DNA of 45,732 nucleotides, filler included, from Catajapyx aquilonaris (taxonomy: Eukaryota): NCBI GenBank assembly GCA_000934665.2. It is 2 parts of 2 records of this genome, joined end to end, with 100 filler letters (N's around TTAATTAATTAA, not from the genome) between each part and the next. Parts side by side here need not be neighbours in the genome. Positions count along the whole stretch, not along the records: positions 22,917 to 45,732 come from JYFJ02005806.1; 1 more part is not named here. One strand, written 5' to 3'. A program made the translations under genes and the position numbers. Within the stretch, counting starts at the first letter, position 1; each line of letters begins with the position of its first letter. This document shows, piece by piece, positions 13,979 to 45,378 of this stretch. Under the pieces are notes generated by a model. It saw only the letters and a program-made list of their open reading frames with translations. It ran no database searches and was not told the origin of the DNA.

Positions 13979-15709
13979 TCACGACGCTCTTCTCTTGATC
14001 ACATACTTCCCACGACTGAGCTGCGTCAGGTAGATTCGTACTTTTGAATTGTCTGATGTCTTGCGCACCCATATCTGGAAGAAATTCCCAGAAACAGTTA
14101 CTTTCATGAATCATGTCATTCACTTGCATGTTATCAAATTCAAAAACTGTCACATAATTTGGAATCTGTAGTTATTTATAAAAGTCAATTTTAAAAGGAC
14201 CTTTCAAGAAACGTCAAATGTGGTATGACATCAAAATATTACACGGCTCAACTCACCGCTTCAGACCCAATCGCTGATACAACGGCACTGAATTTGGATT
14301 GGTCCTTTCCCTCCACGAACACCTGCTGACCTCGGTGGAACCTTCAGTAAGAAATTGAACAACAAACCCACATTGTCACCACCCATTTAAAAACTGGATA
14401 GCATGTAAAGAGACATTGACTAAGAACACTCACCATCTCTTCTCATAAAACAGCTTCCCATCTTCAACCCTCGCATCATAAGACTGGTATGAGTCTCCCA
14501 TGGACGATATTCCCATGGATGACGGCTGCGACTGGTTAGTGATTGGTTTTTTCACCGTTGTGGATACTGCTCTTGCTTTGATCATAAGGCGGAGGTCTTC
14601 GTCCACTTCACGCTCATCCAACAAGTAATTCAACTGTGCTGGTGCTGCCTTTCTCCTCTTTTCAGGCATCGGAATGGGATCGTTGGGTCTTCTCCTCAGT
14701 TTCCTCGTCGTTGCAGGTTTTACTTCCATCGAGTCACCTGTTAGCTCCATTGAATGGCGGTCCACCTCCACCATCTTGCGTTTTTCCTCCATTTCAGCTA
14801 TTAAACTCTCCCGCAATTCAATCTTTTTCTCCTCAAACTCTCTGGCAGCAGCCCGTTTTTCACACACATAGTCACGCTCTGCCAACTCACTTTCATACTC
14901 CCGCCACACATCATTTAGATGCAGACGCTCCCGATACACCTGTTCTAATCGCTTCAAGCGTCGATTATATTCAGGATGGACCCCATCTTTCAATTGCTGT
15001 AGCTGCTTCTTCAATGCCATGAGCTTGTCACGATACATTCTGGTTGGAAACAGTAATAAAATGATGTTACACAGTGCATCCAGATATTAACTTGCCATCC
15101 ATATCCATCTCCTCTGCAACTTTCGGGATAATAATTATAAGACTGGAGCTTCATCATCCCCAAGCCTAGCATCTCGTCAAGCTTTCTGCTTCCTTCAGCA
15201 GTCAGCTGTATGCATGTGAAGTGCTTCCAAGCATCACGACAAAGGCGCTGACAGGATGCCGGAAGTCACCTTACAGCTTATCCCACAGTCGCAGATTGAA
15301 TCGATAGGATGGCTGGGAAACACTCTGAAATACCTTTTCCACATAAGTCAGGAAAGGTAGTTACACAATGGATAACTTACTGCTCTTTGATCTCCGTAAA
15401 GTCGGTGTACTCTTCTTGCGACTTCATCATATCAGTCTCGCTCGCATCTTCCGTATCTGAAATTGACATATGAAAAGGAGTAAGCCATTAATGGTTCACA
15501 CTAGTACATCAGCTTTTCAATATGCCAGAAATCTACACACCGGTACACAGTTCCTCACCTTCATCGCTCTCATGATCCTCCATCTCCAGCAGATCCCTAT
15601 CATCCTCCGCATCCTCATCCTCAAACTCATACTCATCATGAGCATACCCACCCGACGATGAATAGGGCGAACCCATCCCCAGATGCGACCCTCCCGTCGC
15701 CCCCGCCAT
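13979..15709 (-). CDS. SUDS3: Sin3 histone deacetylase corepressor complex component SDS3; exons 15709-15559, 15456-15381, 15039-14434, 14341-14257, 14074-13979
   Basis: Diagnostic segments [77 protein letters not shown] and [16 protein letters not shown]; splice phases are consistent. Confidence 0.95.
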
Positions 15710-16214: not shown

Positions 16215-17267
16215 ATGGCGTACCAGACGTTCCTGCAGGAGTATATGCAGACCCCGGTGGTCACCAGGGCGTACACTACGGCCTGTGTGTTGACCACCAT
16301 TGCGGTGCAGCTTGACCTTGTGTCGCCCTTCCAGCTTTACTTCAACCCCATACTCATCGTCAGGCAGTACCAGGTATGGCATTTGTAACAGTCCGCTTAG
16401 AGATTACCTAACAATCTTACTCGTTACAGATATGGCGGGTGGTAACAACGTTCCTGTTTTTCGGGACGATTGGATTCAATTTCTTCTTCAATATGATCTT
16501 CACGTATCGGTACTGCCGGATGCTGGAGGAAGGGTCGTTTAGGGGGAGAACGGCTGATTTTGTGATGATGTTTCTCTTTGGCGGTGGATGTATGATTGCT
16601 TTCGCCTTCTTCGTCAACCTGCTCTTCTTGGGGCAGGCCTTCACCCTCATGCTTGTCTATGTCTGGTCACGACGGAACCCATATGTCCGGATGAACTTCT
16701 TCGGCCTGCTCAATTTTCAGGTAAGTACATTATTGGTCATATATCGAGGCAACTGCCAGCGACATTTTCCGAAGCGGCAGAGGAAGGAATCGAAGATAAG
16801 AATGCTACAAGCCGGGCGAGCCAGGGGCGAGCAAGATTCCTTCTTCTGCCGCTTCGGAAAATGTCGCTGGCGGTTGCCTCGATATATGACCAATACTGTA
16901 CATCAATATTATCTTGTAGCTAATTGAACGCTAACGACTTGTTCATATAGGCACCCAACCTTCCATGGGTCCTGCTGGGCTTTTCCCTGCTGCTTGGAAA
17001 CTCGATTTCAGTGGATCTGATGGGAATGCTGGTGGGACATATTTACTACTTCCTGGAAGATGTGTTTCCCAGCCAATCAGGAGGCTACAAGATCCTCCAG
17101 ACACCTCGCTTCATGTGAGTAGTTTCCCATATATGCTTGCAATTGGTGTTGACTGTTGCATCATTTTCAGGCGAACGCTTTTTGATCCTCAACCAGACGA
17201 CCCGGACTACAACCCACTTCCTGAGGACAGGCCAGGAGGATTCAACTGGGGGGAACGTCGAGACTAG
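16215..17267 (+). CDS. DERL2: Derlin-2 (ERAD rhomboid pseudoprotease); exons 16215-16373, 16430-16720, 16951-17114, 17171-17267
   Basis: [67 protein letters not shown], and C-terminal [15 protein letters not shown]; canonical introns. Confidence 0.96.
16728..16898. mobile_element. MITE (about 62-bp inverted arms, TA flanks, Tc1/mariner-like CAGT terminus) in Derlin intron 2
   Basis: tattggtcatatatcgaggcaactgccagcgacattttccgaagcggcagaggaaggaatc pairs with its near-perfect reverse complement at about 16834-16895. Confidence 0.75.
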
Positions 17268-18282: not shown

Positions 18283-20796
18283 TCACAAGGCTACAGTCGC
18301 TAGCAGGACCGTTACATCGTCAGGCTTCCCACCTGAAATTTAAAAAGAAATTATTATTGAGGATGCGAACAAGTGTCACTGTTGCATTAGCTGTTCATCA
18401 CTTAAAGCGACATATGTAACATACGAGGTCAAATAAATGCAATGGAATCCCAAAAGCCACTTCTAAATAAAATTAGGAATAAGTCGATTTGTTTACATTC
18501 GCAGAACCTGTCGAATGAGAACAGGGGAAGTACTTTGAGGTTTCTCAACAAGGAAAACTATATGTAAGGGAATTAATACTACATGAAGGCCATTTTACCT
18601 AATCAGGACAGATGCAAAAAAAAGAAAAAGAAGAAGAGCAGTAGAGTTGGAATAAAAAGGCGAGGATGAATCCCACAAATTCACTGTTTAAAAAGCAGAT
18701 GGCAAGGGGGTAGTCCCTCCTCAAAAAAGTGTACACCGGCTCTCTTGAATTGCGGCTCTCCGCGGCATCGGTGAGCCAGTAAGACCATGGGTGAACCAGT
18801 GTATACTCACTGATGAGTATGTTGGTGAGCCGGAAGAGCCGAGGAGGGCTGGAGTGGGCCGAGGAGGCCGCCAAAGGCAAACTAGTCATATGATGAGAAT
18901 GATGATGAGGAACAAAGGCGCGTTTTGCTCCAGCTCTCCTCTGCTCTCTGCGGCCCACCCCGGCTCTCCGAGTCTCACCAGTGAGGGTGTACACCGGTTC
19001 TCCGAAGTGACTACCCCCATGTCTCCTGGCCCTCCAGAAACTACTATAAACAAAATTAGTGATACATTTTGGCTAGTTCATAGCCAAAATGTATCACTAA
19101 TTTTTTAAATTTCTACGTCAAGCCCTGCACACCATCACACCACATGGATTCACATTTTCGAAGGACATACTTCACGCATCATTTTCTTGATGAAATTGAA
19201 AAATACAAAATTTCGACACCTAACTTCGCGATGTATCTGCACTACTTTGCTTCACAATTTGTCGAACAATTTTCGAATCCAGGTAGCTACATTGAAGAGT
19301 ACCCCCCAAAATTTTCATGGTGTTAGCAAGCGCACAATGACATGATATAAAATGTCAACTGATACTACTTTTTATGGCTGCTGCGGACTGTGTTTCCTCT
19401 TAACTTTCATTTTCTATTTCAAACATATTCAGCACCTTTTGCATCCAATTTTTTTGTGTGTGACGCAAAACATGCCTTTATAGTAATATGCTAATGTAAC
19501 ACGAACAACCCTGTCAGTCTGATGAATGAAAGTGGTATACTGTACTTCCTATTTATAAGTCAATTCTTCACACCTTTATACTTCTACTTTTTCAATACAG
19601 GATGTTCTAGTTGAGGTGTCCAATTCAGTCAGCAGTTTTGTACTATAATTGTAAATCTAACACTTACATTTAGGGGCTATTGAATATATTTTTAGTTTTT
19701 AGTATTTTTGATAGCCCCTAAAAGCGAATGCTGAGAAGTACTTTTAAAAATACACCAATTGCTACTAAAACTGCTAACTGAAATAGACACATCAACTGGA
19801 ACACCATGCATTCAAAAGTTGGAGTACAAAGGCCTGAAGAATTAGCATATAAATAGGAAGTACAGCAGCTATCACTCTTCCATTTACTGTGTAAATCATC
19901 GGCCTGACTGGGTTGTTAGTGCTACATATGGAGAAAGTTAAACTTGCATTGGAATATTACCATGAAGTACATAGTTATACTATCCTCCTCATTCCTCATT
20001 CACCAAATAACAGCTGGGGAATCTAGAGGGGATGGATGGGAGAAATGCTTTGGTACTGCATCTGAAGCCCTTACCACCCAATGAATACAATATTAATTGG
20101 CCAGTCCAAAAGTGCACAATACATTACTACAGACAGATCATATTTACATCAATGAAAGTAAACATCTCAATTTAGTCTAGTCATTCTCTCCCCTTCAGCA
20201 TTCATTTGGCATAATCTCAACTAGTGTCCATAAGTCAGTGAATCGCATTACAGTTGTAATTTCTGGTTTTGACTAGTGATTATAAGGCCTGGTTAATCTT
20301 TGACCACATTTTTTCCATGGATTCTGAAGTGGCATGTAGTTAAGCCCCTTTACCTTAAGGACTTCCATTTTAAACATATCTGCAGTATTTACATCATAAC
20401 CGGATCCTTGCAACCCCTTGTTCTATATTACTGCACACAAGTGTTGTAAACTGTGCTAGACTACCAACTCTAGCAGATACCATGTTAGTACTGATTAATG
20501 GCTAAAAACTTGGCACAAACCCTAAAAATACCAACTAACCAATGGCCTGTATTCCATTCTGTCGAGCACTAAGTGCAAATGGCGACATGTACTCGTCGTC
20601 AAATGCTAGGGACCTAGCCATCCATGCAATGGCATTGGCCACACCCTGTAGACGCAAGGGGTCACGCTCTCCCTGTAGTTTGGTCATCTCTGTCACCAGC
20701 ATGTGGTCTGGGACATTGTCGAACACACCATCGGTGGCAAGTAGAATGACGTCGCCATCCTCTACCCGGAGTTCCACTCGATCTGCTGACTCTGGG
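18283..20796 (-). CDS. PPTC7: Protein phosphatase PTC7 homolog (PP2C family), 3' partial; exons 20796-20540 and 18332-18283
   Basis: GDVILLATDGVFDNVPD, ANAIA.MAR.LAFD..YMSPFA and the terminal GGKPDDVTVLLATVAL*; the phase-1 junction is consistent. Upstream exons were not found before the linker. Confidence 0.9.
19052..19104. repeat. Perfect 24-bp-arm hairpin; family also present at 11923-11944
   Basis: aaaattagtgatacattttggcta-gttca-tagccaaaatgtatcactaatttt; a 22-bp arm copy is identical at 11923. Confidence 0.7.
19495..19926. mobile_element. Old fold-back/MITE element (about 430 bp, degenerate long inverted arms) in the PTC7 intron
   Basis: Complementary blocks include ctgtacttcctatttata/tataaataggaagtacag, ttaggggctat/atagcccctaa and aacaaccctgtcag/ctgactgggttgtt. 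Confidence 0.7.
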
Positions 20797-22640
20797 CTAT
20801 AAGAGGAATAATAATTATTAACAACACTGTCCAATCTATGCAACATTTTAAACATTCACACAAGCAGATTCACATTACATGCATGTTACAACCACCCCAT
20901 ATCTAATTTTTCATGTGACCCTGGTCCTACACTACACCCAGGTGCACAATGCAATCAAATATTTCTGACTACGTCTAGTCTTACATAACTGTCTGTTATG
21001 CTATCATTACGTCTAACACAGCATATCTTCGCCTGCTTTTTTCCTGCCAATCTATCATGTGGAAGTGACTTCCTCCCGCACTACTCCAGAGCATGGTGAG
21101 TAGTTCATCTGGATCTAAAATCATATTTAAATCCCACATATTTTCCGGCCAGTTTCTTCCCAACCCCAGTAAGTAGGAAATTAAACCTGTGATTCCATTT
21201 TGGCCAGCTTGAGTGAGGTTCTAGTACCCCCCCTAACTCAATATGTGGTCCTCCAACTTCGTTTCCCTCTCATCCTGTCACTATTGCAACCATGAGGGGT
21301 TGCAGACTTCTAATAAAAATGCACATGGTGTTTCAAAGTTTCTTGTAGCTCCTCTAGTGTCACATCCTGGTTTTGTTCTGACTCAGCAAGCTTCCAGTCA
21401 ACTCCAAGAAGAGTCGATTTTCAGAGGCAAACAAAGGTACGGAAAGGAAGGAGATTCCTTCTCGTGCAGAGCATTTGGCAGCCGAAACTGTCCGCTTTGA
21501 CGACACGCCGCAATTTCCACGACGACGGGGCAGTTTAAGCAAAGTTTCACTCTCTGGAAACGCCGGCTGTGAGAGAGCCAAGTTTGCCAAGAAAATCAGA
21601 CTTGTCTATACGTTTTATTTTCCAGCCAACGATAAAGAATTGGCTGGCATGTCGGTCTCCACACACTGTTCCAAGGAAGTGGGTTAAATGGTCGTAAATA
21701 CTTAGGACTGAATCCAGTTCCACAGTTTTCAGACATACTATGGTTCAAACTATTTCACATTCAAAAAGTTGTAAGCAGCTACTAATTCCAACTTAGAGAT
21801 TGTCACATGGCTTAAATGGTTCTGTCTAAATAAATGAGTAGAAGAGCTCAATTTGGGTACAAACATTACTCCAATCAACAGAAAAATGAGCAAATTGAAT
21901 TTCTAAAAGAATTATCACAGAATTAGCAGCTCTGTTTCTGGTGAACACAACGAAAACACTCATACCGAACAACCAATTCAGACAGTTCAGACTGCCCCAA
22001 ATCTGAAATGTTCCAAAACTTCTCACCAACTCCACCCAACCATAAAAAAACCTGCCAAATATGTAATCAGATTTGTCCTACCCAGTAAAATCGATCTGTC
22101 CTTTTTACCAAGTAATATGCACCGTGCATCAAAGTAATAGCCTTCCATAAAAATTGCGGCATATCCCGGAAGTTATGAGGAAACAAGAGGGTTGTAGGGT
22201 TTCATTTTGAAAATGAGATGGAAGCTAAGGAGCTCGAAACGGCGCAAAAGAAAATAAAGCCGGAGACTGAGGGTGAAAAGAAGCTGATTAGGTAATCTCC
22301 ACAGGGAGGGATTGATACAGCCTGAATGGGGAAAAAGGGAAAAAGCTCCTTGAGAACTTCACCTCTGAAATATTTATAAGGGCTCAAAATCCCCCTTTTT
22401 CCACGAAAATACCAGAGCCTGTTCATGGTAAAAACCTCCGAACAAAAATAACCAGTTCCAATTATGTGACAGCACACGTTTGTGCGAAACCACGCCTGTC
22501 GATTACCCATTAACCAACAACTAATGAGTTGATCAATTAACCATGTGTGGTACAGAATTGCATCCCGAATTCATGTGCCTGGAAGTGGGTGACTTCTAAA
22601 TCTCCATTCACACACAAGCTACACTGAAGTCCCCTTCAAA

Positions 22641-22816: not shown

Positions 22817-22916
22817 NNNNNNNNNNNNNNNNNNNNNNNNNNNNNNNNNNNNNNNNNNNNTTAATTAATTAANNNNNNNNNNNNNNNNNNNNNNNNNNNN
22901 NNNNNNNNNNNNNNNN
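22817..22916. other. Artificial assembly linker: 44 N + TTAATTAATTAA + 44 N
   Basis: Exactly 100 bp and symmetric, with a palindromic core giving stop codons in all six frames. Confidence 0.9.
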
Positions 22917-23780
22917 CCCCCCCTTCGATTTTTTTTCTGACCACACGCCTGACAATTTTAGACCCCTCCCCCCTCCACACCCCTCCAATAATTTTCAACA
23001 CCCTGTCCAACCGCAGACAATAGGTTGCGAGGTTAAAGGTCACGATTTGTGACACTTGTCAATAAAACGTTCCATATACTGGCAAATTAAAATTTGTTCA
23101 CATTTATTGCTTTAGCTAGATTTTCGTGGATGGAAGTACAGGCATATTTAATGGACACATCCACGACAGTGGTCAACAAGGATCGTTCATGTTCTACATT
23201 ATCTACGTAACAGTGGAAGCAAAGCATAGCGTCATTTTGCTCACAAGAAAGAAGACTGTCGGGTTCATCATTTTTTCTGGCCTGTCGCCCTGCACATTCT
23301 GGATAACCATGGTTTATTTGTTATGGTTTTGGTTTTGTTTTTTTGTGATAGGGCCCGCGAGGCCCTCTTAGGGGGGAAGGGGAGGTTCCCAAGGGAGGGC
23401 GCTGTGCGGTAGTCATTTCTGACATTCTTTAAACACCAGGCCTTTTCTCCTGGCCCTGGGCAGAGTAGAGTGTGCAATTCTGCCCCGGCATGTCGGGTGA
23501 AGAGCGGAACAAGACATGGCCAAGCAGAGGTGACGGGGACGGGATTTGAATGTTTTTCTAATAATATCTGCCCCTGTCGTGCAGACATGCTAGCAAGACT
23601 CATAATTATTCCACGAGCATTGCAATGCCATCTGGGGCGTGCCCTCGTATTATTATGCATCAAGTTGCTATCTTATCAACCAATATATGATTTCCTGCAG
23701 ACGCAGGAAAGGGCCGTTAATGCTCCTTTCCTTTGATTACAGGTCAGAGTTTGCATACCAGCAGTATATAGGCAGAGGCA

Positions 23781-24583
23781 ATGGACCCCAAGAACGGTGA
23801 GCTTCATGTGGCGTGTCTCAAGTTCAACCTTAAAATCCTGAAGCTTCTGTTGGAGGATGCGGATCCCAATGTCCGAAACAAGCTGGACCAGACCCCTCTC
23901 CACATGGCCAGTCAGGTAGGGTTCATCCAAGGGGTGGAGTGCCTGCTGAAGAATGGGGCCAACATGGATACGGTGGACATCCACGAGAATACGGCCTTGC
24001 ACGAGGCGGCCAAGAATGGACACAGAGGCGTCTGCGACATTCTGGTGTCTCTTCTTCCGAAGCGCAACAAGGACAATCGAAGTGCTCTTCACGTGGCTGC
24101 AGAACATGGGAAGCTTCGTTGCGTGGAGCTGTTCCTGCAGGAGGGGGCCGACCCTGATATGGCAGACAACGAAGGGGTCACTCCTGTCACCCTGGCAGTG
24201 ACCAACAACCACGACATGGTGTCACAGGCTCTCATCAATGCACGGAGGTACGGATAAGCAGTTTCTAATAATTGTTGTTGAAGGTACTAATATTGTTGAC
24301 ACTGTACAGGATGCAGTCTAGGAAGCAGGTGAAAGACCCATCTGGAGGGAATGCAGACCAGTCCATCAATACAACAAGTGGTAGTAATGCAGCTGAGGTA
24401 AATAAAATGTACACACAATAAATAGATTAACTGGAAGTAATTAAATTTCAGATGCAAATGTCACCAGATAATGACCCACGAATAGTGTACAATAAAATAC
24501 CTAATCAGCCGACGGGTGACCCGCTGATAGAAGCTTTGAAGAGGAGTGGTATTGCCTACCCCGGCTGCGGCCGCCCCTACTAG
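23781..24583 (+). CDS. Ankyrin-repeat protein (about 4-5 repeats); exons 23781-24247, 24310-24397, 24452-24583
   Basis: QTPLHMAS, NTALHEAA, RSALHVAA, VTPVTLAV with GAN/GADP loops; short canonical introns in phase; in-frame stop upstream of the ATG. Confidence 0.8.
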
Positions 24584-25432: not shown

Positions 25433-27445
25433 TCATTTCATTTTGCCATTATTGCAATACTTCTCATATCCAAAGGCTAACCACGACGCGGCCAATCCTA
25501 CAAGCCACAGGCCAAACACATTGGTCATCTTATACAAACTGAGGAGACTATGCACCTCCTCACTCCCATGCATGAAGTTGTTGCGTTGACGAGATATTCT
25601 GAAATAATTTCTCACAAAATTTCCGTGATATGCCACACGTTTGGCTTGGTTTACCACACGTGCTTCCAACAGCCTTTGCAACACACGGTCCTCGTCTGCG
25701 AAGTGGACATCGTCTCTACCGTATGCCGGAGCAGAGTACGCCTTAAAATTTTCCTCAGGCAGAAACAGAGTCTTGGGATGCCCCTTGTGGTCCAGGAAAA
25801 AGTCTCGTTCTTGGTCGTAAAATGCATCCAGAATGACGCACGCAAACGCGTGCGACTGCGTACGCTCCATGCAGCCTCGCAGGTCCGGAACCGTCATCAT
25901 CATGTCAATCATGTCACTGTGCAGAGGGCTGTTCGCATGTTCTAATGCCATGGAGTAAAAGGCCGCCAGCAGGTATGTCGTACCCCAGGTCATCTTGGAG
26001 TCGTGGAGCTCTTGGATATTGCGAGGAAGGACCTCAGGTTCTGGGAAGGTGATCATCATGACTAGCTTGGTCTTGTACAGACAGCCGATCACCATCGAAA
26101 ACACGAGGTAAAACGCTATGAAAATCCGGACATTAGTGTCTCGGGTGTACTCAAGAGGTCGTTCCACCAGGTTTCCCAACAAGTTGGTCATGTGGGTGCA
26201 GATTTTGGAGAGTTTCGAACCCCTCTGTTGTTGATCCAGAAAGGATAGGACGAATGAGGCGAGTAGGATGCAGCAGAACAGAGCAATCCACAGAGGTGGT
26301 TCAAATGGCTGGACTACGAGGTACCACTTGATGTCAGGTCTGGGTGTGCGTGTGACAATCCCTGGTTGTAAGAAGAGGCAAGGGTAGCTCAGCTGGGTGG
26401 CTCTGGAGGCTGTGTCGGAGAAGAAGGCTCCTGCCTGCCAATCCATGTTTCCGGCCATGATGTCGTGAGATATCCCCGTCAGGCTACCGTTTGGGTTCAC
26501 CTCCGTGGTCAGAAGACCAGGGTTGGTCAGGGTGATGGCCACATTGAATGAGTATTCCATTATCATGAAAAATTCTTCGATGCATGACACATACTCGTCG
26601 TTCGCCTTTCGAAGCCTTGCATGCTTGATGTCTAACTTATCGATGTAACCGACGGTTAAAGACTTGCCGTTCATGTCCCTGGTTGGACTTGGGAACAAAT
26701 CCTTCTGCTCAGAAGACTTGCTGAAATTTGCAGGAAAGTTGAGACGATTTTGTCCTGATTTGCAGCAGTAGCACACTGTGTGTATGGCCAGTGTGGATGT
26801 GTCCGAGTCCAAGTGTGAGAGCAGCTTGAGCCTGATTCCCTGGAGAGGATCCTTCAGAAGCCAATTCTCGGGTTGGGTGTGATCTTTGTCTCGGATGTGG
26901 ATCAAGACTGGATCGTACAGGTTTCGAATCATGAATGAATTTGCAGTGCTCATGATGAGCTGTGGCAGTGCTGATCCATTCCTGGACAGAATAAGGTTGA
27001 AGGCGCAGCTTCCTCCTGGCCAGAGTCTGCCCCTGAGTTCTGGAGGTTGGGTACGAAACGACAGGAGGTGTTCAGGTCTCCATATCCAGGGGTAATCTCT
27101 GTAGTCGAAGTGGAAGGAGTCCATCCTCGAGAGGACAGCGGGACGGTAGGTGACCACTTGGCTCCTGATCAGCACTTGCTGCAGCTCTGAGCTCATCATC
27201 TCCTGGTGATCCATGCCTATTCCCAGGGAGCAGTCGGTGAAGTACTCGTCCAAATGGTATGTAACCAGCTCGGACAAAAGGTCATCTTCCAAGCTCTCTT
27301 TTGCAATATACAATCTCTTCTGTGAATATAGAAAACTCACTGTAAAACTGAGCTAAGAAAATGAAAAACTTGCGAAGGTACTTACTGAACAAGTATAACT
27401 ACAAAGAAGAACTCCAAGGAGTGTTCCACATACCCAATTCAACAT
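25433..27445 (-). CDS. Divergent ionotropic receptor (variant iGluR chemoreceptor) A; exons 27445-27386, 27319-25433
   Basis: Signal-peptide exon MLNWVCGTLLGVLLCSYTCS, VCYCC motif, S1 ..R.TQLSYP, PFEPPLW-M1, M3 LYKTKLVMMITFP, C-terminal M4 VFGLWLVGL...FGYE. Confidence 0.85.
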
Positions 27446-28003: not shown

Positions 28004-30046
28004 TCATGCCCCAGTAAATTCTTCATTATTCATATCTTCTCGTTTCATTTTTCGACATTTCTCGTAGGCAAAACCAATCCCAGCTGCGGCTAAGCCAATG
28101 AGCCACATACAAAAGACGTAGGACAACTTCTTAAAACTGAGCACAGTGGATTTTTCTCCGCCATAGCCTCTTTGGTTCTCCTGAGAACCTCGAAAGAAGT
28201 TGATAATAAAAGTGCGGTAATTTGCCATGTTGATCAGGTGGTCAAAGGCACGTGCCTCCACCAGCCTTTGAAACACCCTGTCCATGTCCTGGTAATAGAC
28301 GTGGTCTCTTCCGTAAGATGGACCGGTGTACATCTCCAAGTTTCCTTCCGGAAAGAACACGATTTGCGGGTTGCCTTGAGCATCCAAGAAATTGTCACGT
28401 TCCCGATTGTAGAAGTAGTCCGGGAGAATGCAGGCAAAGTTATCTGTCGTTGTGAGCTCCATGCACTCCAACACAGTCTGCAATGTCACCATGTGATCGG
28501 CTATGTAGTGGATCAGGGGATTGTCTACCCCCTCAAGCAAGATCGAGAAGAGGATCACCATGAAATCGGCTGATCCCCATGACATCCCAGATCCATAGAG
28601 TTCGTGGAAGCTTCGAGGCAAAGCTTCGGGTTGAGGAAAGGTGATGAAGGACACCAGCTTGGTTCTGTACAAGCAGCTGACCACCATCGAAAAGAATAGG
28701 TACACAGCGGCGAAAGTCATGGTCGGTGTGTCATGAGTGTACTCCAAAGGTTCTTCCAGCAGATTCGCCATCAGGTTGCTCATGTTGTGGCAGATTCTGG
28801 AGGCCACTTTCAACACTGGTGTCCTTCCTTCCTCCTGTGCTCGATTTATAAAGTACAGGGCAACCGAGGAGAAGAGCAGGCAGAGAAACAGTGTAAGCCA
28901 CAATGTCGGAGCGAATGGTTGGAATATGAGGTACCATTTCATGTCTGGTCGGGGAGTACGGGTCACCAGCCCTGTTCGTAGAAACATGGCTGGATAGCTC
29001 AGCAACGTTGCTCTCGTTGCGATGTCCGAGTAGAGGGTTCCGGCCTGCCAGTCCACCTTCTTGGACATGATCTCGTGGGATATTCCAGTCAAACTTCCGT
29101 TTGGGCTCAGCTCGGTGTTGAGAAGACTTGGCTGGGCCAGGATCGTGAAGAAGTTGAACACCTCCTCTAGGATCAAGAAGAACTCTTCGATCGCAGTCAC
29201 ATGCATATTGTTCTTCTTCCGAATCCTCGCATCCTCCAGGTACACGATCTCGATGTAGCCCACCACATACTTTTTGCCATTCATGTTTCGAGGCGGCATC
29301 GAAAAAAGATCGTGATCAGAGTGAGTCGTGCTGAAGCTGATCGGCGGATTCAGATCGTCATGTCCAGACTTGCAGCAGTAACAGACGTTGTGAACAGTCA
29401 GCGTGGATGTGTTTGGATTGAAGTGTGACATAAGTTTCAGACTGATTCCTCGAACCGGATCCTGAAGGAGGAATCTCTGTGGGTTGTGGTCTGTCTGATC
29501 TTGGACATGGATGAAGACCGGGTCGTACACGTTTCGGAACATGTGCGAATTAGCGGTGGTCATGATCAGTTGGGGTAAAGTGGAGGCGTTTCTGGCTAGG
29601 ATCAGATTGAATGTGCATTTGCCTCCGGTCACCAAGGTTGACCTTAGTTCAGGAGGCTGGGTACGGAAGGACAGGAGGTGGTCTGGCCGCCAGATCCACT
29701 TGTAGTCCTTGTGGTCCCAGTCGAAACCGGTCATCCTGGACAGCACCATGGGCCAGTACCTCCCATCCTGGTTGCGGATCAGAACCTTCTGAAGCTGCGT
29801 GCCCATTTCCGTGTGATCCATCCCGATCCCCAAGGAACAGTCTGAATAGTGTGTATCCAAAATGTGTCCGATCACACTCGCCAATGTGGCATCTTCCTTG
29901 TTGACTGTCCCTAAATTCTGAATATTGAAAAGAGGATAGAGCGACATTAGCAAAAAGATATTTGGCAATAAGACCACACTTACAAGTGAATATTCTGGTA
30001 CAGTAATATCGCAGGCGATGAGAAAACAGAGCAGTATCAAGTACAT
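28004..30046 (-). CDS. Divergent ionotropic receptor B (tandem paralog); exons 30046-29984, 29917-28004
   Basis: Same architecture; shares WRP.HLLSFRTQPPELR, VCYCCKSG, PNGSLTGISH, DWQAG and TRTPRPD.KWYL with receptor A. Confidence 0.85.
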   Translation of the reverse strand: MYLILLCFLIACDITVPEYSLVSVVLLPNIFLLMSLYPLFNIQNLGTVNKEDATLASVIGHILDTHYSDCSLGIGMDHTEMGTQLQKVLIRNQDGRYWPMVLSRMTGFDWDHKDYKWIWRPDHLLSFRTQPPELRSTLVTGGKCTFNLILARNASTLPQLIMTTANSHMFRNVYDPVFIHVQDQTDHNPQRFLLQDPVRGISLKLMSHFNPNTSTLTVHNVCYCCKSGHDDLNPPISFSTTHSDHDLFSMPPRNMNGKKYVVGYIEIVYLEDARIRKKNNMHVTAIEEFFLILEEVFNFFTILAQPSLLNTELSPNGSLTGISHEIMSKKVDWQAGTLYSDIATRATLLSYPAMFLRTGLVTRTPRPDMKWYLIFQPFAPTLWLTLFLCLLFSSVALYFINRAQEEGRTPVLKVASRICHNMSNLMANLLEEPLEYTHDTPTMTFAAVYLFFSMVVSCLYRTKLVSFITFPQPEALPRSFHELYGSGMSWGSADFMVILFSILLEGVDNPLIHYIADHMVTLQTVLECMELTTTDNFACILPDYFYNRERDNFLDAQGNPQIVFFPEGNLEMYTGPSYGRDHVYYQDMDRVFQRLVEARAFDHLINMANYRTFIINFFRGSQENQRGYGGEKSTVLSFKKLSYVFCMWLIGLAAAGIGFAYEKCRKMKREDMNNEEFTGA

Positions 30047-31307
30047 GCTGCTTCCCAAAATTGCGACGACTACAATGCATAGACTACATATCCGGGCTAA
30101 TACGCGCCTTCCGACATGTAAGTCATGCAAGATAATTACGTCATGAATTTTTATACGAGTTGGGATTGCCGATAATTTTATCTTTGTGGAATACCAAAGG
30201 AGCAAGTTCACATGTATCACACGACTAATGATAGTGTTTGTGCATGTGCTCCGTATGTCGTGACATAATGTTTGGGTCTGACTTCCTTATCTTATGGAAG
30301 CGCCTTACTTCCTTGTCTGTGGTTCCAGCCGTCGCGCGACTGATCCTTCGGCTACAGTGTCAAGATTCATTGGTTTAGCTGGTGCATATTTAATGTCTAA
30401 ATGAGCCTATCCTGCTGAAATCGGAAATTGCGAAATATTTTTCCTGCACTTTCGTGACATAACTCAGCATGTATGCCCTTGAACCCTGGCGTTGCTATGG
30501 GATAATTATGGAAAGTACTTCGATGTACTTTTGCACTTATTCGATAGTATTAAAGCACTTTATTTGTGGGGTTATTTGTGAATGGAAATCAGCTCTGTAA
30601 GTAAAAAAACATACCGGCCGGTACCCCCCAATCATATCTAGTTACTTGACCAGTTCTTTTTTGTCACTTTGTATATCTTGTATACTTTGCCCGTCCTTGA
30701 GTTCAAGTGGGGGTAGGCTCCCAGCGTACATTGCCTTGGATTAAAAGGGGTCGGGAGAAAACAAAATAAAAAATAAAGCTGGCCAATCACATAGCAACGA
30801 ATGTTCTAGAGAATGTGAACTGGTAATGTGACGTACCCTTCGTACGTAGTGAGTAGGCGTCAAGTTACGCTATAAACATCTAGGTCCTATTGCCCACAAT
30901 ATTTACTCCGGTTCAAAAAACAATGTTTTATGTTATTGCAACTGGTTATACGAGAATGATATTGCTGCTCTCATTTAGAAATTATTGTCAGGTTTAATGA
31001 TCAGTGACAAGTGAATAAGGGCGTGGTTGCACTGCCGGTTGCACTCACATGACTGCGTAGGAATACTATTGGTAGCCTCTAATTTCATCATCCTCACTAC
31101 ATGACTGGCGAGTAGAGAAGAAGGTCGTGCGCTCATACATGGGAGAGGAGGTATGATTTTTCAGACATTAGTTGGATAATTATGAGTCACATTATTAATG
31201 CCACAGCTTCAAACTCATGTGCCAACTCATGCTCATTATAGCACAGATTTAACGTGCATTACAAAATGTCATATTCGTAAATCTATCTTCTTTTCAGGAG
31301 AAGCCAA

Positions 31308-32002
31308 ATGGCCAGACGGATCAAGAAAGGCAACACCCCCCTGGAAAATTTCCTCATAGTGCTTAGAAGGTAAGAGTCATGCACAAACAGATAATTATGA
31401 GGGCAATATTTTTTAAAAAATCTGGACATAATGTGGATATGTTGTCTTACTCATTCACAATCTTTTGCAGCATATTCCCTTGGATTTTAAAAATGCATAA
31501 TAAACCACCACGACCACCACGGTCATGTGCCAACTGCAGAACTGCCTGTCAAAACCCAATGCAATCAAGAGACCCCAAGATTAACCTGCAAGGTCCGATT
31601 AATATAAGGGACAGCGTTGTCCACATTGGCGACCAATATAACATCCATGGCATCTGCATAAGTGGCATTCATGGCACAGGAAATGTCAATATAAGAGGGA
31701 AGATAAACATAAAAAATAGCACAGTGCATTTTGGGGATCGAAATGAAGTCCAGGGGTGGACTTTTCCTAACATCATTCCGTTGCCGATTCTGGTTCTGGT
31801 TCGTCTGGTCCATTTACCATGTAAGCATTTCCTTATGTTTCTGTTTTCTAGCGTTAAATGCATAATAGCACAGTTGCCAAAATTGCTCATACTATATTCC
31901 ACAATATTAATATATTTTATTTTCCCTTTTGCAGCTTGGCTGAGGATGATGTACATAATTTATGTACTGTATATACTGGCAGGAGGAGATGGTGAGGAGT
32001 AA
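31308..32002 (+). CDS. Small (about 160 aa) protein with two RHIM/cRHIM-like repeats and a hydrophobic C-terminus; exons 31308-31369, 31471-31820, 31935-32002
   Basis: Strong splice sites (AG|gtaaga, ttttgcag|, T|gtaagc, ttttgcag|) with consistent phases; repeats INIRDSVVHIGDQYNI and INIKNSTVHFGDRNEV lie 35 aa apart. Confidence 0.62.
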
Positions 32003-32600
32003 CAAAAGCAGTATGGATTTTTAATGTGCAAATGAGAGAGAGTGAATGAGTGAATGGGTAATGTTTATTTCGTGGCCACAGTATAAAAGTGTTGAATCTA
32101 CGTTGGACCAATGTACAGAGAAACAAGATTATCTCATGTGAGATAAAGCTCTGAGATGAAGCAGGGCAAAGTTATTTGCGTATGTTAGTCCTTGTGATCT
32201 GTCCAATATGCAATCATTTTAATGCTGTAGGCCCCATAGCACAGAGGATGGTGCTATGGTTCATGGTTATCCCTGGAACACCATGTGTGAAATACCCACC
32301 TGCAACAAATTAAAAGAAGGGAAAATTGCCTGGCAATGGTCTGAGATTTCTTGTGTCGTGAGTGGGTAATTCACCTGATGGTGTTCGGGATGTTTGGTGG
32401 TCCTGCTGATGACTCGTCGAGATTTCTTCTTTTCTTCTGCTTCTGGTGTTTTTACACTAGAGTGCCATGCCCACCTGAGAGATGGTCACAATGGTATATG
32501 TCCTCTTCTAGCTATAGTGGGAAATGAGCTAGCAGAGGGCATATTACATTGTGACCAAGTCTCCGTTGTGTCTGGGACTCTAGTGTAAAAGAGGAGCTAC

Positions 32601-32965
32601 AATGGTCAAAAGTTTTGTGAAACATGAATTTTTCAGAAAACTTCCTTTTCTATGCTTTTCCAACTAATGTTTTTTGCTCCTGCCTGTTCACTTTCGTAAG
32701 AGCCATTTGCAATCGTCCAGGGGGTGGTGAGGGGTGGGTCGTCAGGAGAGGTTTGGGCGGGAGGGGAGTAAGTTTCGGGCTCAGAATGGGTTTTTCCTCC
32801 CCACCCGCCCAAACCACTCCTGACTACCCACCCCTCACCACCCCCTGGACAATTTCAAAAGGCTCTTAAGAAAGTGAACAGACAATGAGTGGAAAACCTT
32901 AAAAGAAAAATCATAGACAAAGAAGTTTTCCAAAAAATTCATTTTTTATTAAACTTTTGAGCATT
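32601..32965. mobile_element. Fold-back MITE with about 165-bp inverted arms
   Basis: gtccagggggtggtgaggggtgggtcgtcaggagaggtttgggcggg pairs with cccgcccaaaccactcctgactacccacccctcaccaccccctggac; complementarity extends outward. Confidence 0.75.
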
Positions 32966-35010
32966 ACTGTGATAGTCAGTGTGGTTGGAAGAAAAGAAGG
33001 TACAGTACGGTCACAGTATATGGGCGTTACACTAAAGACCGGCATAGGGCACGGGTGGCACACCAGAGACTAGTGGCGCAAATGTTCACAGTCTTGTCGT
33101 TGGCACACTTTTCTATATAAATATAAAAGCGCCCAGAGGTGAAGAAAAAGAGAAGTTGCAAATCATACCCGTGCCCCGAGAATTGCCGAAGGGTCCCAGG
33201 AGAGGGGACCGACTCTTTTCAGAGGTCCTAGTTTGCTTGTGTCACCCAGCATGGTTATTTTTACTCAAGCTTTGTACAAGACTCATCTCTCCAGTTTCCA
33301 AGAGCCTGTGGTTGAAATGGTGCTGTTTCTTTATAATATGATCGCACCTGCTATGGCTGGATCACATTGATTTTGGATGTGCTTTTGATGGTGACAGTAA
33401 GAAAGAGTGAGATCGTTGGGTCTAAGTAAACTGATCCCCTCCTTCATCGCAAATGTTAGTCAACTCAATAGTTGGCAATAAGTCCAGGCGCAAAGGGGGG
33501 GGGGGGGGGTTTTGGNGGGGATTTGGAAGTAATGTGTTGTCCGAGCTCCTCCCTGAGCATCAGGCTTCATCGACATTTCTTGCGTGCAAAAAATATGTCA
33601 CCCGGGGTTCAGTGCCTCCTGACAGAAACCAAGTTTCTCTGTTTGCGCCTGGCCTGAGAGAGATGAGGCTTGAGCAGAAAGATCATGCTGTGAGAGACCA
33701 GCCTGACTCAACGGACTCTGAAAAGCTGGTGTGTACATTGTGCGAGAAGCACCTTTGCATCTTTAAATAGTACCTGACTTAAGTCAGGTAAATTGTAATA
33801 TGATTGCATGTTTCTTGGAACGTTATAGTGCCAACTGTCTTGGCAAAGAAGCAATATCCAATTTGTTTTCCCTCAACACTGTTAAAACTTTCAAGTGTGT
33901 AAGGTGTACTGAAAAAATTGACATATGGCAAAGAGATACATAATTGTTGAAACAAGCAAAACATGACACCACAGCTTGACAATCAGGCACATGGCAGGAC
34001 CAATTAATATACTATGCTGGGAGATTAATGACAACTACTCCAGAAAGGTTTAACTTTTGTCAGAAAATACCAAATGTGACGGGACCTGTTACAAGTTGTG
34101 GTTTTAGAAATGTTGATGAGATAATTTATGTATCTGCCTGTCATTGTTAAGAATGATTTAATTTGTAAAAGTGAAAATCAAATTTTGGGTTTCAATATTG
34201 TAACATGATGCAGAGGAAGGACCATCTTCAATGTCAAAAGTCTTTAGGAACGTCTCAATACTCGCGACGTAACTGTTTACGTACCTGACTGATTAATAAT
34301 AATGGTGGAGAGAAAGTAAAGTGGGCTCTACACAGGCGGTCCGACTCCGACTCTCTCCGACTCAGAGGCATCGGACACCCTATTCAGAGAGAGGTCTGCT
34401 GTCCGATGTTCGTAGGTGGGGGGACCCGTTTTTGTGGAGGGGGGTGGAGGGTGGGGAACAAGTCTTAGAGAGATGGTGGTGGTGGAGCGGGGGCAAAATT
34501 TGTTTACGTGGAGGTGAAGGTGGTGTGGGGTGCAACGAGTTCGCCAGGAAGGCACCACGAGCCAATCAGAGAGCGGCGTTCCTCCGAGTGTCCCTTCACA
34601 CAGTTTCACACGTTTTGCCCCACCCACACTCCCATCTCCGACTTTCTTAGGTGACCTGAGCTGGCCTCCCTGGCTCCGACGTGGAATGCCATTCACACAG
34701 AAGGTTCGATGGTCGAATTTTGTCGAATCCGTGTACGACCTGACTGTGTAAAGCCCATTTAATATTTGTGTCGTGATCGTATATGACATCACAGAAATTG
34801 GGGCTTCCTGTTTTAGTGGACAGGCACTGAAATAACTGGGTTCTACAAATTCAACATTGTTGTAATAAAAGTTGAAGCTATGCAGTTGAGTCCTAATAAT
34901 GTCAGAGAGGCCGGAATAAAAGAAACCTCACTATTTATCTAGTGTCATGTACGATTCCAGCCATCGAGGTACAGATATTTAAAACTGACAGTATCTCATG
35001 TGAACACTTA

Positions 35011-35136
35011 GGGCCGGTTTCACCGAGCCCGGTTTTGATAAAAACCCCGGTTCTTCGGAAAATCCCTGCAAATAGAATAGGGATTTTCCAAAAGAACCGG
35101 GGTTTTTATCAAAACCGGGCTTGGTGAAACCAGCCA
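35011..35136. mobile_element. Tourist/PIF-Harbinger-like MITE
   Basis: Near-perfect palindrome starting GGGCCGGTTTCACC, with TTA on both flanks (35008-10 and 35137-39). Confidence 0.8.
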
Positions 35137-42800: not shown

Positions 42801-45378
42801 CCTATGCTACGCTCATAAAGTATATCTCTTTGAAGGTGAACAGCCATTAATTAGCCAAATCATCATCATTCCCAAACTACACTATGAAAGTGCTCTACAA
42901 TTAATCAGGTCTCACCATAATCACGTAACTTTCAATGACCTGAGGCAGAATCAGGTACACCTCTTGAAAGTACCAGTTTCATCCACCTCATCCGCTTTCT
43001 CTTGCCAAAAGAGACACCTCAAAAAATAATGTCGATCCCAAAAAAAGGCCAACTTATTAAAAACAGTCACCTAATAATGCCACTTCAAGTACCATATTTA
43101 TCAATCCTGTACTGCATTTATACAGGAAGTTGTGGCTGGGAAGGACATATTGGTTAGATATCACCGTAATATTCATCGCACTTCCCTGAATTTAAGACAG
43201 GTGATGGTAATTCATATCTTTCTATACGAGGGACGTGTCACATATTCACCAGCCACCACTTCTGACGTGGGATGCAACTACTACTCATGGCTAAACAGCA
43301 AAATGTTAAATTGCACAATAATAGCGCAAGCCCATTTACCTTGTGTGCTATCTTCTGGCATGGTTTCTTTCCTACTTTAACAGTGCCTTTCATTTTGTCC
43401 ACATGCTGAAACACAATTTATGAAAAATTATTTATGATTGAAACACATATCTTAGGGCCCTAGTCTGGTGTCCGGGGGTAGGAGCCCCAGAAACAGTGGG
43501 TACTGTTTTTGACTAATTTTTTGGCCTCCCAGGAGCAAGCGGGATAGCCCCCTCTGTATACACTCTACTACCGATTATCCGGGTGCGGATTATTATTTTG
43601 TGTTACAGATTATACGTGCATCGCCAAGACCAAACGTTAGGAATATAAGTTTGAAAGAAAGTCAATATGTCACACAAACAAAAAATGTACCATTTTTTGC
43701 AGAAAACAATCTAAAAATCTATGGTAAATTGTATTATTGTAATTAACCTTATTTAAAGCAGCATACACTCTGTACATTAGTTAATTTTAAACCGGTGGAT
43801 AGCTCTTTTTACGGTATCTAGGGCCATTTTCGGATTATCCGTGTTTTCCTGATTATACGGGCACATGCGTGCAATTAATTTGCCCGGATAATCGGGAGTA
43901 CAGTGTTACTGGCATTTTCCGGCTTTACAGTGGCATTTCCCGTGCTCCCCATGATCAACTTGAGACAAGTGCCTTATCCCCTCGCTATCACACCTCCTCG
44001 GGAGTGAACAGTTACCCAGCGTCTGGGCAGCTGCGCGCCTGCGTCGTAGAGCCCACCAAACCCGCCAGACTCGGAGGTTAGTTGCCCCATCAAGGTGTGG
44101 TAACGGAAATGGCTAGCAGATTCCCGGGGCGAGGTCCATACCCCTTCTAACGGGACCGGATCCCTGGACACCAAACTAGGGGCCTTAGTATGTTTAACCA
44201 GTACCTCAGGCAATATGCGAGTATCATGACAGCTGAAGCTGTCAACGGGAGTATCCTGGTTGTGGTTCGTATCTGTCAGCAAAAATGTTAAAATGAATTA
44301 ACCTATAATTGATTGATTAGCCTATTTTTGATGCAACAGTAGCCTTGGCTTTACTGCCAGGAACATGGCCAATTTATGCAAAATATTCCTAAATGTGCAA
44401 TGTATTATTATGTGCAGCAATTTAAAGCAACAAGTGACTGTTACAACAGAAACCTGTAAATGTAATGTCTAACCAGATAAGAAGTTTTGGTGTAAAATAA
44501 TGTTACAATATCTCACCCAGGGATCGATTCCTCTTCACCTTTGAAACCTCCTTAGTCCGCAAAGGCAGAGATTCCAACTTTGGGGCTGCACCTAAATTTC
44601 TGAATGCTGAAACTAATGTTTTAAAAATCTCATTATGTTGGAGGAAAAGGTCTAAATCTAAATGACAGGAGAAAGAATGCAACAAACCATTGGCAGGGGC
44701 AGTGACTGTGGAGAAATTGACATCCTTTGGAAACACTGCAGCCAGCTCCTGCAGGAGGATTCTCACATGGTGATACATTATTGGATTACCACGACGCTTC
44801 TCCAGTTCCTCCATCACAGTTGTAGTCAAGCGACTAAGTGACTTGTATGGCTTCCCACCATCCCGCAAATAACACAAGAACTTGCAAATCTTTGTTGCAC
44901 TCTTCACCATTGTCTTCTTTGCCTTTGAGAGTTTCTCAGTCATTTGTCGTTGAGTACAATATCCTCCTGCAGAAAATGAAGGTGTTACAAAAAACGTCAA
45001 ATGAAGCCCGCCGCTTGGGCCTATCTCCTCATAGCATGGGCTTGTAAATTTTCGCCTTGAAAATTTATATATTTTTAGTGGCAGTCACTCTGTTCACACA
45101 AATAACTGAACTGAGAACAAAAAAGTTGCTTCCACCATCTACATATACTTACTACGCCCACTTGACTCCAGCTTCATCAGCTCTTCGTCAATTTCAACAG
45201 CCTTGATCTTATTGGCAATCACATCCCATACGAGGTTTGTAATGGTGAAGGTGGGTGATTGAAACTCCAGCAGGTCAATCTCCTCTCCATATGAAATTGC
45301 CGGGCCATTTTTTATCTGCTCCAGAAAAGTCACTTCTTCATCACCTTCCTCATATCTGATGCCTTTGCAGGTGCCCAT
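39828..45378 (-). CDS. MYND-type zinc-finger protein with an unrecognised N-terminal domain; proposed exons 45378-45153, 44966-44517, 44272-44205, 43405-43340, 41264-41010, 40781-40557, 40230-40129, 40009-39961, 39889-39828
   Basis: Nine exons join in frame via GT-AG sites (phases 1,1,0,0,0,0,0,1). Spliced C-terminus CCMCGKEALGKCHGCHARFYCSPSCQ|AIDGHRNIC followed by basic RKRKR. The start codon and the exon content of 41.3-43.3 kb are uncertain. Confidence 0.65.
43455..44184. mobile_element. PIF/Harbinger-like non-autonomous element (intronic)
   Basis: TIRs gggccctagtctggtgtcc / ggcccctagtttggtgtcc (17 of 19 match), TTA on both flanks. Confidence 0.7.
43561..43905. mobile_element. MITE nested inside the 43455-44184 element
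   Basis: TIRs cactctactaccgattatccggg / cactgtactcccgattatccggg (21 of 23 match), internal GATTATCCG repeats, TA on the left flank. Confidence 0.7.

Follow-up and report, generated by a model that had tools for sequence, protein, structure and literature searches.

In the literature passages drawn on here, the canonical RHIM has the core I/V-Q-I/V-G, and the cryptic RHIM (cRHIM) is defined by a V-x-x-G core, of which Gly alone is invariant, and by function. For shrimp IMD the core reported to be sensitive to deletion is VHIG (residues 39-42), which is also the reported motif of Aedes PGRP-LE and IMD, and for fly IMD the core is given as LHFG. As far as these passages go, cRHIM signalling in arthropods is known only from motifs that form part of receptors, of adaptors and of a single soluble regulator. 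Two or three RHIM copies are found in ZBP1 and in some invertebrate proteins, and covalently linked RHIM copies have been proposed to favour seed formation (Kajava et al.). The same source describes the HET-s domain as a tandem 26-residue repeat, each repeat being one coil of an axially stacking two-coil beta-solenoid, and Pirk as a protein with several 18-residue repeats that resemble half a RHIM, together with a RHIM-like motif (Kajava et al.). Pirk is described as acting on cRHIM assemblies, and an Aedes Pirk-like protein as functioning without any cRHIM. Here we describe a candidate gene that would encode a small protein with two cRHIM-type cores, found in a stretch of 45,732 nucleotides (nt), filler included, of Catajapyx aquilonaris DNA (NCBI GenBank assembly GCA_000934665.2). 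This whole stretch, which joins parts of two records, is referred to below as the window, and the gene lies in the part that comes from JYFJ02005806.1.

We read the product, tentatively and at somewhat less than an even chance, as a stand-alone, tail-anchored, HET-s-like two-rung stacking module of cRHIM type, a reading that we grade as plausible and unproven. What follows sets out the gene and its repeats, the likelihood that the frame is translated, the predicted stacking of the repeats and the explanations that compete with this one.

The candidate gene and its twin repeats

The candidate gene occupies 31308-32002 (+) and has three coding exons and GT-AG introns; the joined frame measures 480 nt, or 159 codons and a stop. 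An earlier reading of the same DNA, the first-pass annotation, had proposed a three-exon frame of about 160 residues at these coordinates, and both the frame and all the sequence features that it listed were recovered where it had placed them. Coding exon 1 (31308-31369 (+), 62 nt) runs from the ATG at 31308 to the donor AAG/gtaagag at 31369/31370 and holds the first 20 2/3 codons, which specify a basic N-terminus and the beginning of an amphipathic segment. Intron 1 (31370-31470 (+), 101 nt), GT-AG in type and pyrimidine-rich at its 3' end, closes with the acceptor ttttgcag/C at 31470/31471. Coding exon 2 (31471-31820 (+), 350 nt, donor CAT/gtaagca at 31820/31821) contributes 116 whole codons, the translation of which served as the query P0001, and carries a Pro-rich stretch, a CxxCxxxC motif, both repeats and the first half of a hydrophobic tail. 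Intron 2 (31821-31934 (+), 114 nt, GT-AG, acceptor ttttgcag/C at 31934/31935) keeps the frame and contains no stop codon (the stretch 31367-32002 reads as one open frame of 211 codons), so its retention would just lengthen the hydrophobic tail and leave the C-terminus the same. Coding exon 3 (31935-32002 (+), 68 nt) encodes the remaining half of the hydrophobic region, which ends at residue 154, and an acidic end, with TAA at 32000-32002.

Upstream, an acceptor-like site (ttttcag/G at 31297/31298) sits 10 nt before the ATG and a donor-like site (GAG/gtatga) is found at 31151/31152, and for this reason a non-coding leader exon probably precedes the ATG exon; the possible intron in the 5' untranslated region, at 31152-31297 (+), was called, like every splice junction here, from consensus alone. 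Downstream, a donor-like GTGAGG read from the sequence after 31991, 9 nt before the stop, could lead to further exons. The nearest polyadenylation-like signal is ATTAAA at 32309-32314 (+), 307 nt past the stop, and AATAAA was not found within 1.2 kb.

The centre of the predicted protein is made up of two pseudo-repeats of 25 residues, KINLQGPINIRDSVVHIGDQYNIHG and NVNIRGKINIKNSTVHFGDRNEVQG. The first spans residues 57-81 (31577-31651 (+)) with its core VHIG at 31619-31630, and the second spans residues 92-116 (31682-31756 (+)) with its core VHFG at 31724-31735; both were delimited by self-alignment and both supply interface residues in the four-copy fold described below. Between them lies a Gly/Ile/His-rich linker of 10 residues (31652-31681 (+)), and the starts of the repeats, at residues 57 and 92, are 35 apart. 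Identity holds at 11 of the 25 positions and BLOSUM62 pairs are positive at 18 of 25. That there are two pseudo-repeats 35 residues apart, as had been claimed at first pass, is borne out by the self-alignment: the best off-diagonal score is 70, against 26.2 +/- 4.9 when the whole protein is shuffled (reached in 0 of 300 shuffles) and 20.9 +/- 4.8 when residues 56-117 alone are shuffled (0 of 1000). Since the second shuffle was confined to the Ile/Gly/Asn-rich region, local composition is ruled out as the cause of the repeat. The autocorrelation of the hydrophobic pattern likewise peaks at lag 35 (z 4.3); it is weaker at lag 6 (z 2.3) and lag 13 (z 2.8), and at lag 18 it stays within |z| 2.

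Each core has Ser-x before it and Asp after it, and the longer pattern S-x-V-H-[IF]-G-D is unique to these repeats within the window. VHIG and VHFG carry His in place of Gln and thus fall outside the canonical RHIM tetrad. They do fit the V-x-x-G class tested in cRHIM work, VHIG being the shrimp and Aedes core, and to that extent the cRHIM-type cores proposed earlier hold up.

The repeats also carry the principal evidence that the frame is coding. At the DNA level the two copies are identical at 43 of 75 positions, with agreement at 15/25 first, 20/25 second and 8/25 third codon positions (first and second against third, Fisher p = 0.0027), and for 9 of their 11 shared residues the copies use different codons. 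No DNA-level repeat, tandem or dispersed, is detectable beneath the peptide repeats. With third positions near saturation and second positions 80% conserved, this pattern, which neutral decay of a DNA repeat would not give, points to purifying selection on an old, translated internal duplication; judged by its codon positions, the repeat frame is kept under protein-level constraint. All four splice sites are consensus GT-AG sites with pyrimidine tracts, and they preserve the frame. On the strength of the codon-position pattern and these four sites, we consider it likely that the frame is, or was, a translated gene.

The repeats are preceded by a strongly charged region, residues 1-55 having a net charge of +9. 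Within it, residues 12-29 form a moderately hydrophobic segment that is amphipathic (Eisenberg H 0.43, hydrophobic moment muH 0.48), as had been claimed; the same segment does not make a convincing membrane helix, since it stays below 1.2 in any 19-residue Kyte-Doolittle window. A Pro-rich stretch and then the CxxCxxxC motif follow (31526-31549 (+)), the latter formed, in agreement with the first-pass annotation, by Cys40, Cys43 and Cys47. The hydrophobic C-terminus that it had also noted corresponds to residues 118-154, with 19-residue Kyte-Doolittle means of 1.2-1.8, and consists of two hydrophobic halves with an Arg/His/Pro-containing turn between them. The first half (residues 118-137, 31760-31820 (+)) reaches means of up to 1.83, and the final five residues of the product are Gly, Asp or Glu. 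From the positive-inside rule we infer that the simplest topology would place the N-terminal part in the cytosol, while the C-terminus, as a hairpin or tail anchor, would hold the protein at the membrane; alternatively, a weak signal anchor may place the repeats and cysteines outside the cell.

An arrangement for the repeats was suggested by structure prediction. A low-confidence AlphaFold2 monomer model gives both repeats three strands of 4 residues, which in P0001 numbering are 37-40, 43-46 and 49-52 for repeat 1 and 72-75, 78-81 and 84-87 for repeat 2. When four copies of P0001 residues 31-97 were folded together, the score was 0.35 (runs of 0.36, 0.35 and 0.34) against 0.00 for the best of three controls, which is a pass in this complex test; the runs share at least 83% of contacts and the partner value of the predicted local distance difference test (pLDDT) is at least 63. 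The confident inter-chain contacts pair residue i+35 with residue i (85:50, 78:43, 80:45, 88:53 and 83:48), an offset that lays repeat 2 of one chain, in register, over repeat 1 of the adjacent one. The repeats are therefore predicted, by this model, to stack in a HET-s-like head-to-tail arrangement with two rungs per molecule. With no solved relative found by sequence, the pass does not obviously reflect a complex that the model already knew. In calibration the mark was reached by 21 of 30 microbial proteins solved as one-chain pairs and by 0 of 23 single chains, and for eukaryotes by 17 of 29 (animals 7 of 16; proteins without an older solved relative 1 of 7) and 0 of 30, respectively; these calibrations were done with two copies, the candidate fold with four.

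Relatives and readings

Searches with the candidate returned matches of little use in naming it. Five queries were run against Pfam (P0001, each repeat with its flanks, both repeats together and the 211-residue open frame), and the sole entry to appear was gerPA, at 11-15.2 bits and E-values of 0.027-0.53 over 19-21 residues. Membership of the GerPA/GerPF family (PF10676) was rejected, as these bit scores compare with a gathering cutoff of 27.3. Nor was membership of the Hexapep left-handed beta-helix family supported, with no Pfam match at E up to 10, a weak lag 6 signal and none above |z| 2 at lag 18. No NCBIfam family was matched. Against chains in the PDB, phmmer with P0001 gave four unrelated weak matches at E up to 10, and a profile of the two repeats gave a single match among solved structures, the adhesin LabA (E 0.17). 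The ESM Atlas returned nothing usable for the whole of P0001; for residues 31-97 its best entry was an unnamed 54-residue cluster at 0.77, below lead level.

A word-index homolog search with P0001 gave no candidate. In a phmmer search of 1.84 billion representatives at E up to 0.001 there were three matches, all bacterial: Gram-positive surface proteins of 865-1743 residues (P0002-P0004) with many Ig-like repeats that open with a strand of the type A-V-N-V-H-D-S-T-I-Y-V-G-D. Homology to these was rejected, because the aligned stretches span just 23-47 residues each and their number, 5-10 per protein, inflates the E-values; we read the likeness as convergence on a strand-turn motif. Of the 89 pattern matches in a metagenome scan one (L001) passed tblastn, and it was rejected because it reads a bacterial GGDEF/EAL gene of 688 residues (1347-3413 (-) of L001) in antisense and out of frame. 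That locus shows that a scan with the pattern VHFGDRNE can match by chance. Among viral contigs none of four pattern matches passed, and tblastn inside the window matched the candidate locus alone, with no second copy.

Two controls indicate how far this absence can be read. The Derlin-2 exon of the window (Der1-like, 16412-16720 (+)), which is 90-93% identical to proteins from insects of several orders and 82-84% identical to those of decapods, found 932 matches in the same collection; arthropods are thus well represented in it, and the absence is meaningful for close and moderately diverged relatives. No Derlin-2 match exceeds 93%, so this collection contains nothing closely related to the source organism; by the same matches the window is arthropod DNA, most like that of an insect or another hexapod. 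The neighbouring receptor-like frame of 680 residues, used as a second control, had no match at E up to 1e-10 in the word index, so that route is blind to fast-evolving arthropod proteins. A short ortholog conserved in the two repeats alone would fall below the ~36-40 bits needed in a library of this size. Judging from these searches, the protein is likely to be an orphan, and the best explanation of the locus is a small, lineage-restricted protein-coding gene.

If the product is a tail-anchored stacking module, then a gene with a probable non-coding leader and three coding exons over about 1 kb would yield a protein in three parts: a basic N-terminal part, the two 25-residue repeats and a C-terminal hydrophobic hairpin or tail in the membrane. 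A rung with three short strands (phi-N-phi-x-turn, phi-N-phi-x-turn, x-V-H-phi-G-D) would come from each repeat, and within a molecule one rung would lie on the other. Further molecules would be added by templating, repeat 1 of the newcomer on repeat 2 of the one before, so that a polymer of beta-solenoid or cross-beta type would grow head-to-tail along the membrane, following the HET-s principle with the cRHIM-type cores VHIG and VHFG. The two-rung module is the sole functional element evident in the protein, which besides polymerising could dock onto other cRHIM assemblies at the membrane or cap them. Where an IMD-type immune pathway forms such assemblies, the protein would most likely serve as a seed bound to the membrane, or else as a cap or a decoy. 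A link to IMD signalling, which rests on the tetrad match and on the taxon, is at best distinctly improbable; the identity of the Derlin-2 exon to insect proteins makes an IMD-type pathway a reasonable context. We think it very improbable that the protein is an undescribed animal counterpart of HET-S, that is, a two-rung self-templating solenoid forming an IMD/PGRP amyloid-seeded membrane polymer that would propagate or cap a signal, or that would array its hydrophobic helices as a membrane-damaging effector.

A number of results weigh against the stacking-module reading. The first-pass annotation had named the lack of a RHIM profile match among the findings that would refute it, and the RHIM family, which we take to be present in the Pfam library (no positive control was run), was unmatched at E up to 10. 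No HET-s family was matched by any of the five queries either, in searches where the HMMER filters drop most matches above about 0.1. Solved RHIM chains were also unmatched, with no RIPK or ZBP1 chain among the phmmer matches to the PDB at E up to 10. The cRHIMs as a class are defined mainly by function, and the tetrad VH[IF]G is unspecific: it occurs three times in the 91,460 residues of the six-frame window translation, two of these being the cores in question. No relative was found by phmmer among the 1.84 billion representatives, and the candidate gene is known from its DNA sequence alone. The AlphaFold2 monomer, folded without an alignment, is poor (mean pLDDT 43.6), and the complex test reports the model's own confidence, with a calibration that is weak for animal proteins without solved relatives. 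The codon-usage log-odds score is -0.06 bits per codon, lower than for most of the window's true genes; the candidate frame nevertheless ranks first of its six in this test, for which 1,756 codons from clear genes of the window served as training set and which is not discriminating. The length of the frame is also weakly unusual, as one of at least 211 codons arose in 24 of 200 windows simulated with a third-order Markov model.

A different reading is that there is no functioning gene at all and that the frame is untranslated, for instance part of a non-coding transcript or a dead remnant of a gene, with fortuitous splice-like sites. Sites of the GTAAG and pyrimidine-CAG kinds are frequent where DNA is AT-rich, and intron 2, open in frame, illustrates how readily a T-rich stretch translates into a hydrophobic 'tail'; to these may be added the lack of a homolog, the reliance on sequence, the negative codon usage and the ease with which an equally long frame is simulated. 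Such an origin is nonetheless unlikely, for the repeat copies agree at 35 of their 50 first and second codon positions against 8 of 25 third ones, with mostly different codons for their shared residues. The frame, moreover, is intact despite the divergence of the repeats, with no stop in 159 codons over three exons joined by four consensus, frame-preserving splice sites. A translated frame could still belong to a larger or differently built gene, with upstream coding exons joined through 31297/31298 or downstream ones through the GTGAGG after 31991, in which case the stand-alone architecture would be wrong. The frame is open back to the acceptor 10 nt before the ATG, the donor-like site lies 9 nt before the stop and the domain screen covered exons of 70 codons or more, all of which would accommodate further exons. 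Against this, a divergently oriented receptor-like gene ~1.26 kb upstream leaves room for a promoter and leader exon and for little else, the candidate leader has no start codon in frame with the ATG, and none of the 42 + 3 frames of at least 70 codons in the 13.7 kb downstream has a Pfam match. We regard a larger gene as distinctly unlikely.

Rather unlikely, too, is the explanation that the protein is an ordinary small membrane protein with a folded mini beta-helix or beta-solenoid as its ectodomain or cytosolic domain, a monomer or fixed oligomer, perhaps of hexapeptide-like coils, in which the VH[IF]G tetrads are the third strand and turn of each coil, with no templating and no link to RHIMs or cRHIMs. 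The weak 6-residue hydrophobic period, seen at lags 6 and 13 beside the stronger one at 35, fits such coils, as do the three 4-residue strands that the monomer model gives each repeat, and neither RHIM nor HET-s profiles contradict it by matching. Such sub-threshold likenesses as there are, to gerPA (E 0.027-0.13) and to the bacterial surface repeats, concern strand motifs of folded proteins or coat proteins, and residues 12-29 could be a weak signal anchor that leaves the repeats and the three Cys outside the cell. That segment, however, scores under a membrane helix and the N-terminus carries a strong positive charge. At E up to 10, Pfam gives no match to Hexapep or to any other beta-helix family, and about 60 residues are few for a stable solenoid without capping elements. 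The multimer fold, finally, favours stacking of repeats between chains, in an i+35 register over i+18 coils, which is the arrangement expected of the stacking module.

Should the stacking module be real, it would offer a minimal, genetically simple handle on the seeding, capping and localisation of cRHIM amyloids, and its small size makes the idea directly testable. It would also be, to our knowledge, the first animal case of the covalent two-rung design that orders HET-s fibrils. Should the protein turn out to be an ordinary orphan membrane protein, VxxG tetrads would be too unspecific for calling cRHIMs from sequence.

The surrounding window

The candidate stands head-to-head with a receptor-like open reading frame (ORF) at 28004-30046 (-), the first Met of which, at 30046, is ~1.26 kb away. 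This ORF is the second of two in tandem, 25433-27352 (-) and 28004-30286 (-), which are apparently intronless and measure 639 and 760 codons. Both match the ligand-gated ion channel family alone, just under its gathering cutoff (E 5.7e-5 and 3.7e-7), and the ORFs at 25433-27352 and 28004-30046 have the appearance of divergent ionotropic receptors. No kappa-B-like consensus site was found in 30301-31310 with three patterns.

Frames of the window were scanned against Pfam in three sets (8, then 83 of the 155 listed, then 4), the remainder being overlapping alternative frames and the candidate itself. Other exons recognised in this way are an Ig-domain exon (1707-3170 (+)), a DENN-like exon (8943-9200 (-), sub-threshold), an Sds3-like exon (14430-15086 (-)), a PP2C/SpoIIE-like exon (20538-20855 (-), sub-threshold) and an ankyrin exon with four repeats (23772-24257 (+)). 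PGRP, death, kinase, Rel and NACHT domains were seen neither in the scanned frames nor in the product, so that the earlier statement that PGRP, death and kinase domains are absent stands for the product and for the scanned window frames of at least 70 codons; no HeLo domain was seen in the scanned frames. In the 13.7 kb downstream, 0 of 42 frames of at least 70 codons matched Pfam at E up to 0.01, and three further antisense frames stayed short of the Pfam cutoff. Antisense frames over the locus gave a NUMOD-like match alone (E 0.011, 15.7 bits against a cutoff of 27), and Rfam gave no match over the whole window.

Just downstream of the candidate are three near-perfect foldback inverted repeats, at 32450-32590, 32681-32884 and 35012-35135, with arms of 64, 91 and 51 nt that are 81-90% complementary and loops of 13-22 nt; they resemble miniature inverted-repeat transposable elements or foldback elements. 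The inverted pair at 32681-32884 accounts for mirrored Gly/Pro-rich 'ORFs' on both strands. Open frames of 199 and 193 codons without a Pfam match, at 34328-34927 (-) and 44503-45084 (-), may be genes, transposon remnants or chance. Runs of N occupy 22817-22860 and 22873-22916, with single Ns at 10914 and 33516, and none is near the candidate.

Comparison with described systems

The strand-turn pattern hydrophobic-N-V/I-H/x-D-S-x-hydrophobic-x-hydrophobic-G-D is shared by the candidate with the Ig-like repeats of the three bacterial surface proteins and with GerPA/GerPF. These are folded domains of unrelated architecture, however, and 19-47 residues align.

With the cRHIM proteins (PGRP-LC, -LE and -LA, IMD, Pirk, Relish, insect STING and shrimp SRB2) the candidate has the V-x-x-G core in common, and its VHFG is one residue away from the LHFG of fly IMD. 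The motif lies near a membrane anchor in PGRP-LC, SRB2 and STING as the literature passages describe them, and the candidate repeats would be similarly placed. Unlike these proteins, the candidate has no PGRP, death, Rel or STING domain and carries two closely spaced copies of the motif where they have one, and the sequence relationship, as far as shown, is limited to the tetrad and the preceding Ser. The mammalian RHIMs (RIPK1, RIPK3, TRIF and ZBP1, with viral M45) are, like the candidate repeats, short, non-globular, beta-forming segments with a hydrophobic-x-hydrophobic-Gly core and Asn/Ser flanks. Their core is [IV]-Q-[IV]-G, whereas that of the candidate is V-H-[IF]-G, and where RHIM copies are joined by long disordered regions the candidate repeats are joined by 10 residues.

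Pirk (also Rudra or PIMS), a negative regulator of Drosophila IMD signalling, resembles the candidate in being small and free of globular domains; the literature passages on Pirk do not describe it as membrane-anchored, and in this it differs from the product predicted here.

The architecture of HET-s/HET-S of Podospora, with NWD2, also invites comparison. It has two non-identical pseudo-repeats per chain, as does the candidate (25 residues with a 35-residue period); its repeat 2 sits on repeat 1 of the next chain, as in the stacking that the model predicts for the candidate; and its repeats are coupled to a membrane-active part, those of the candidate to a hydrophobic one. The differences are that the candidate has neither a HET-s match in Pfam nor a HeLo domain, that its hydrophobic part is a C-terminal tail where HET-s has an N-terminal pore-forming domain, and that it comes from an animal and HET-s from a fungus. 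If real, the candidate is a variation on the known cRHIM and HET-s designs and introduces no new principle.

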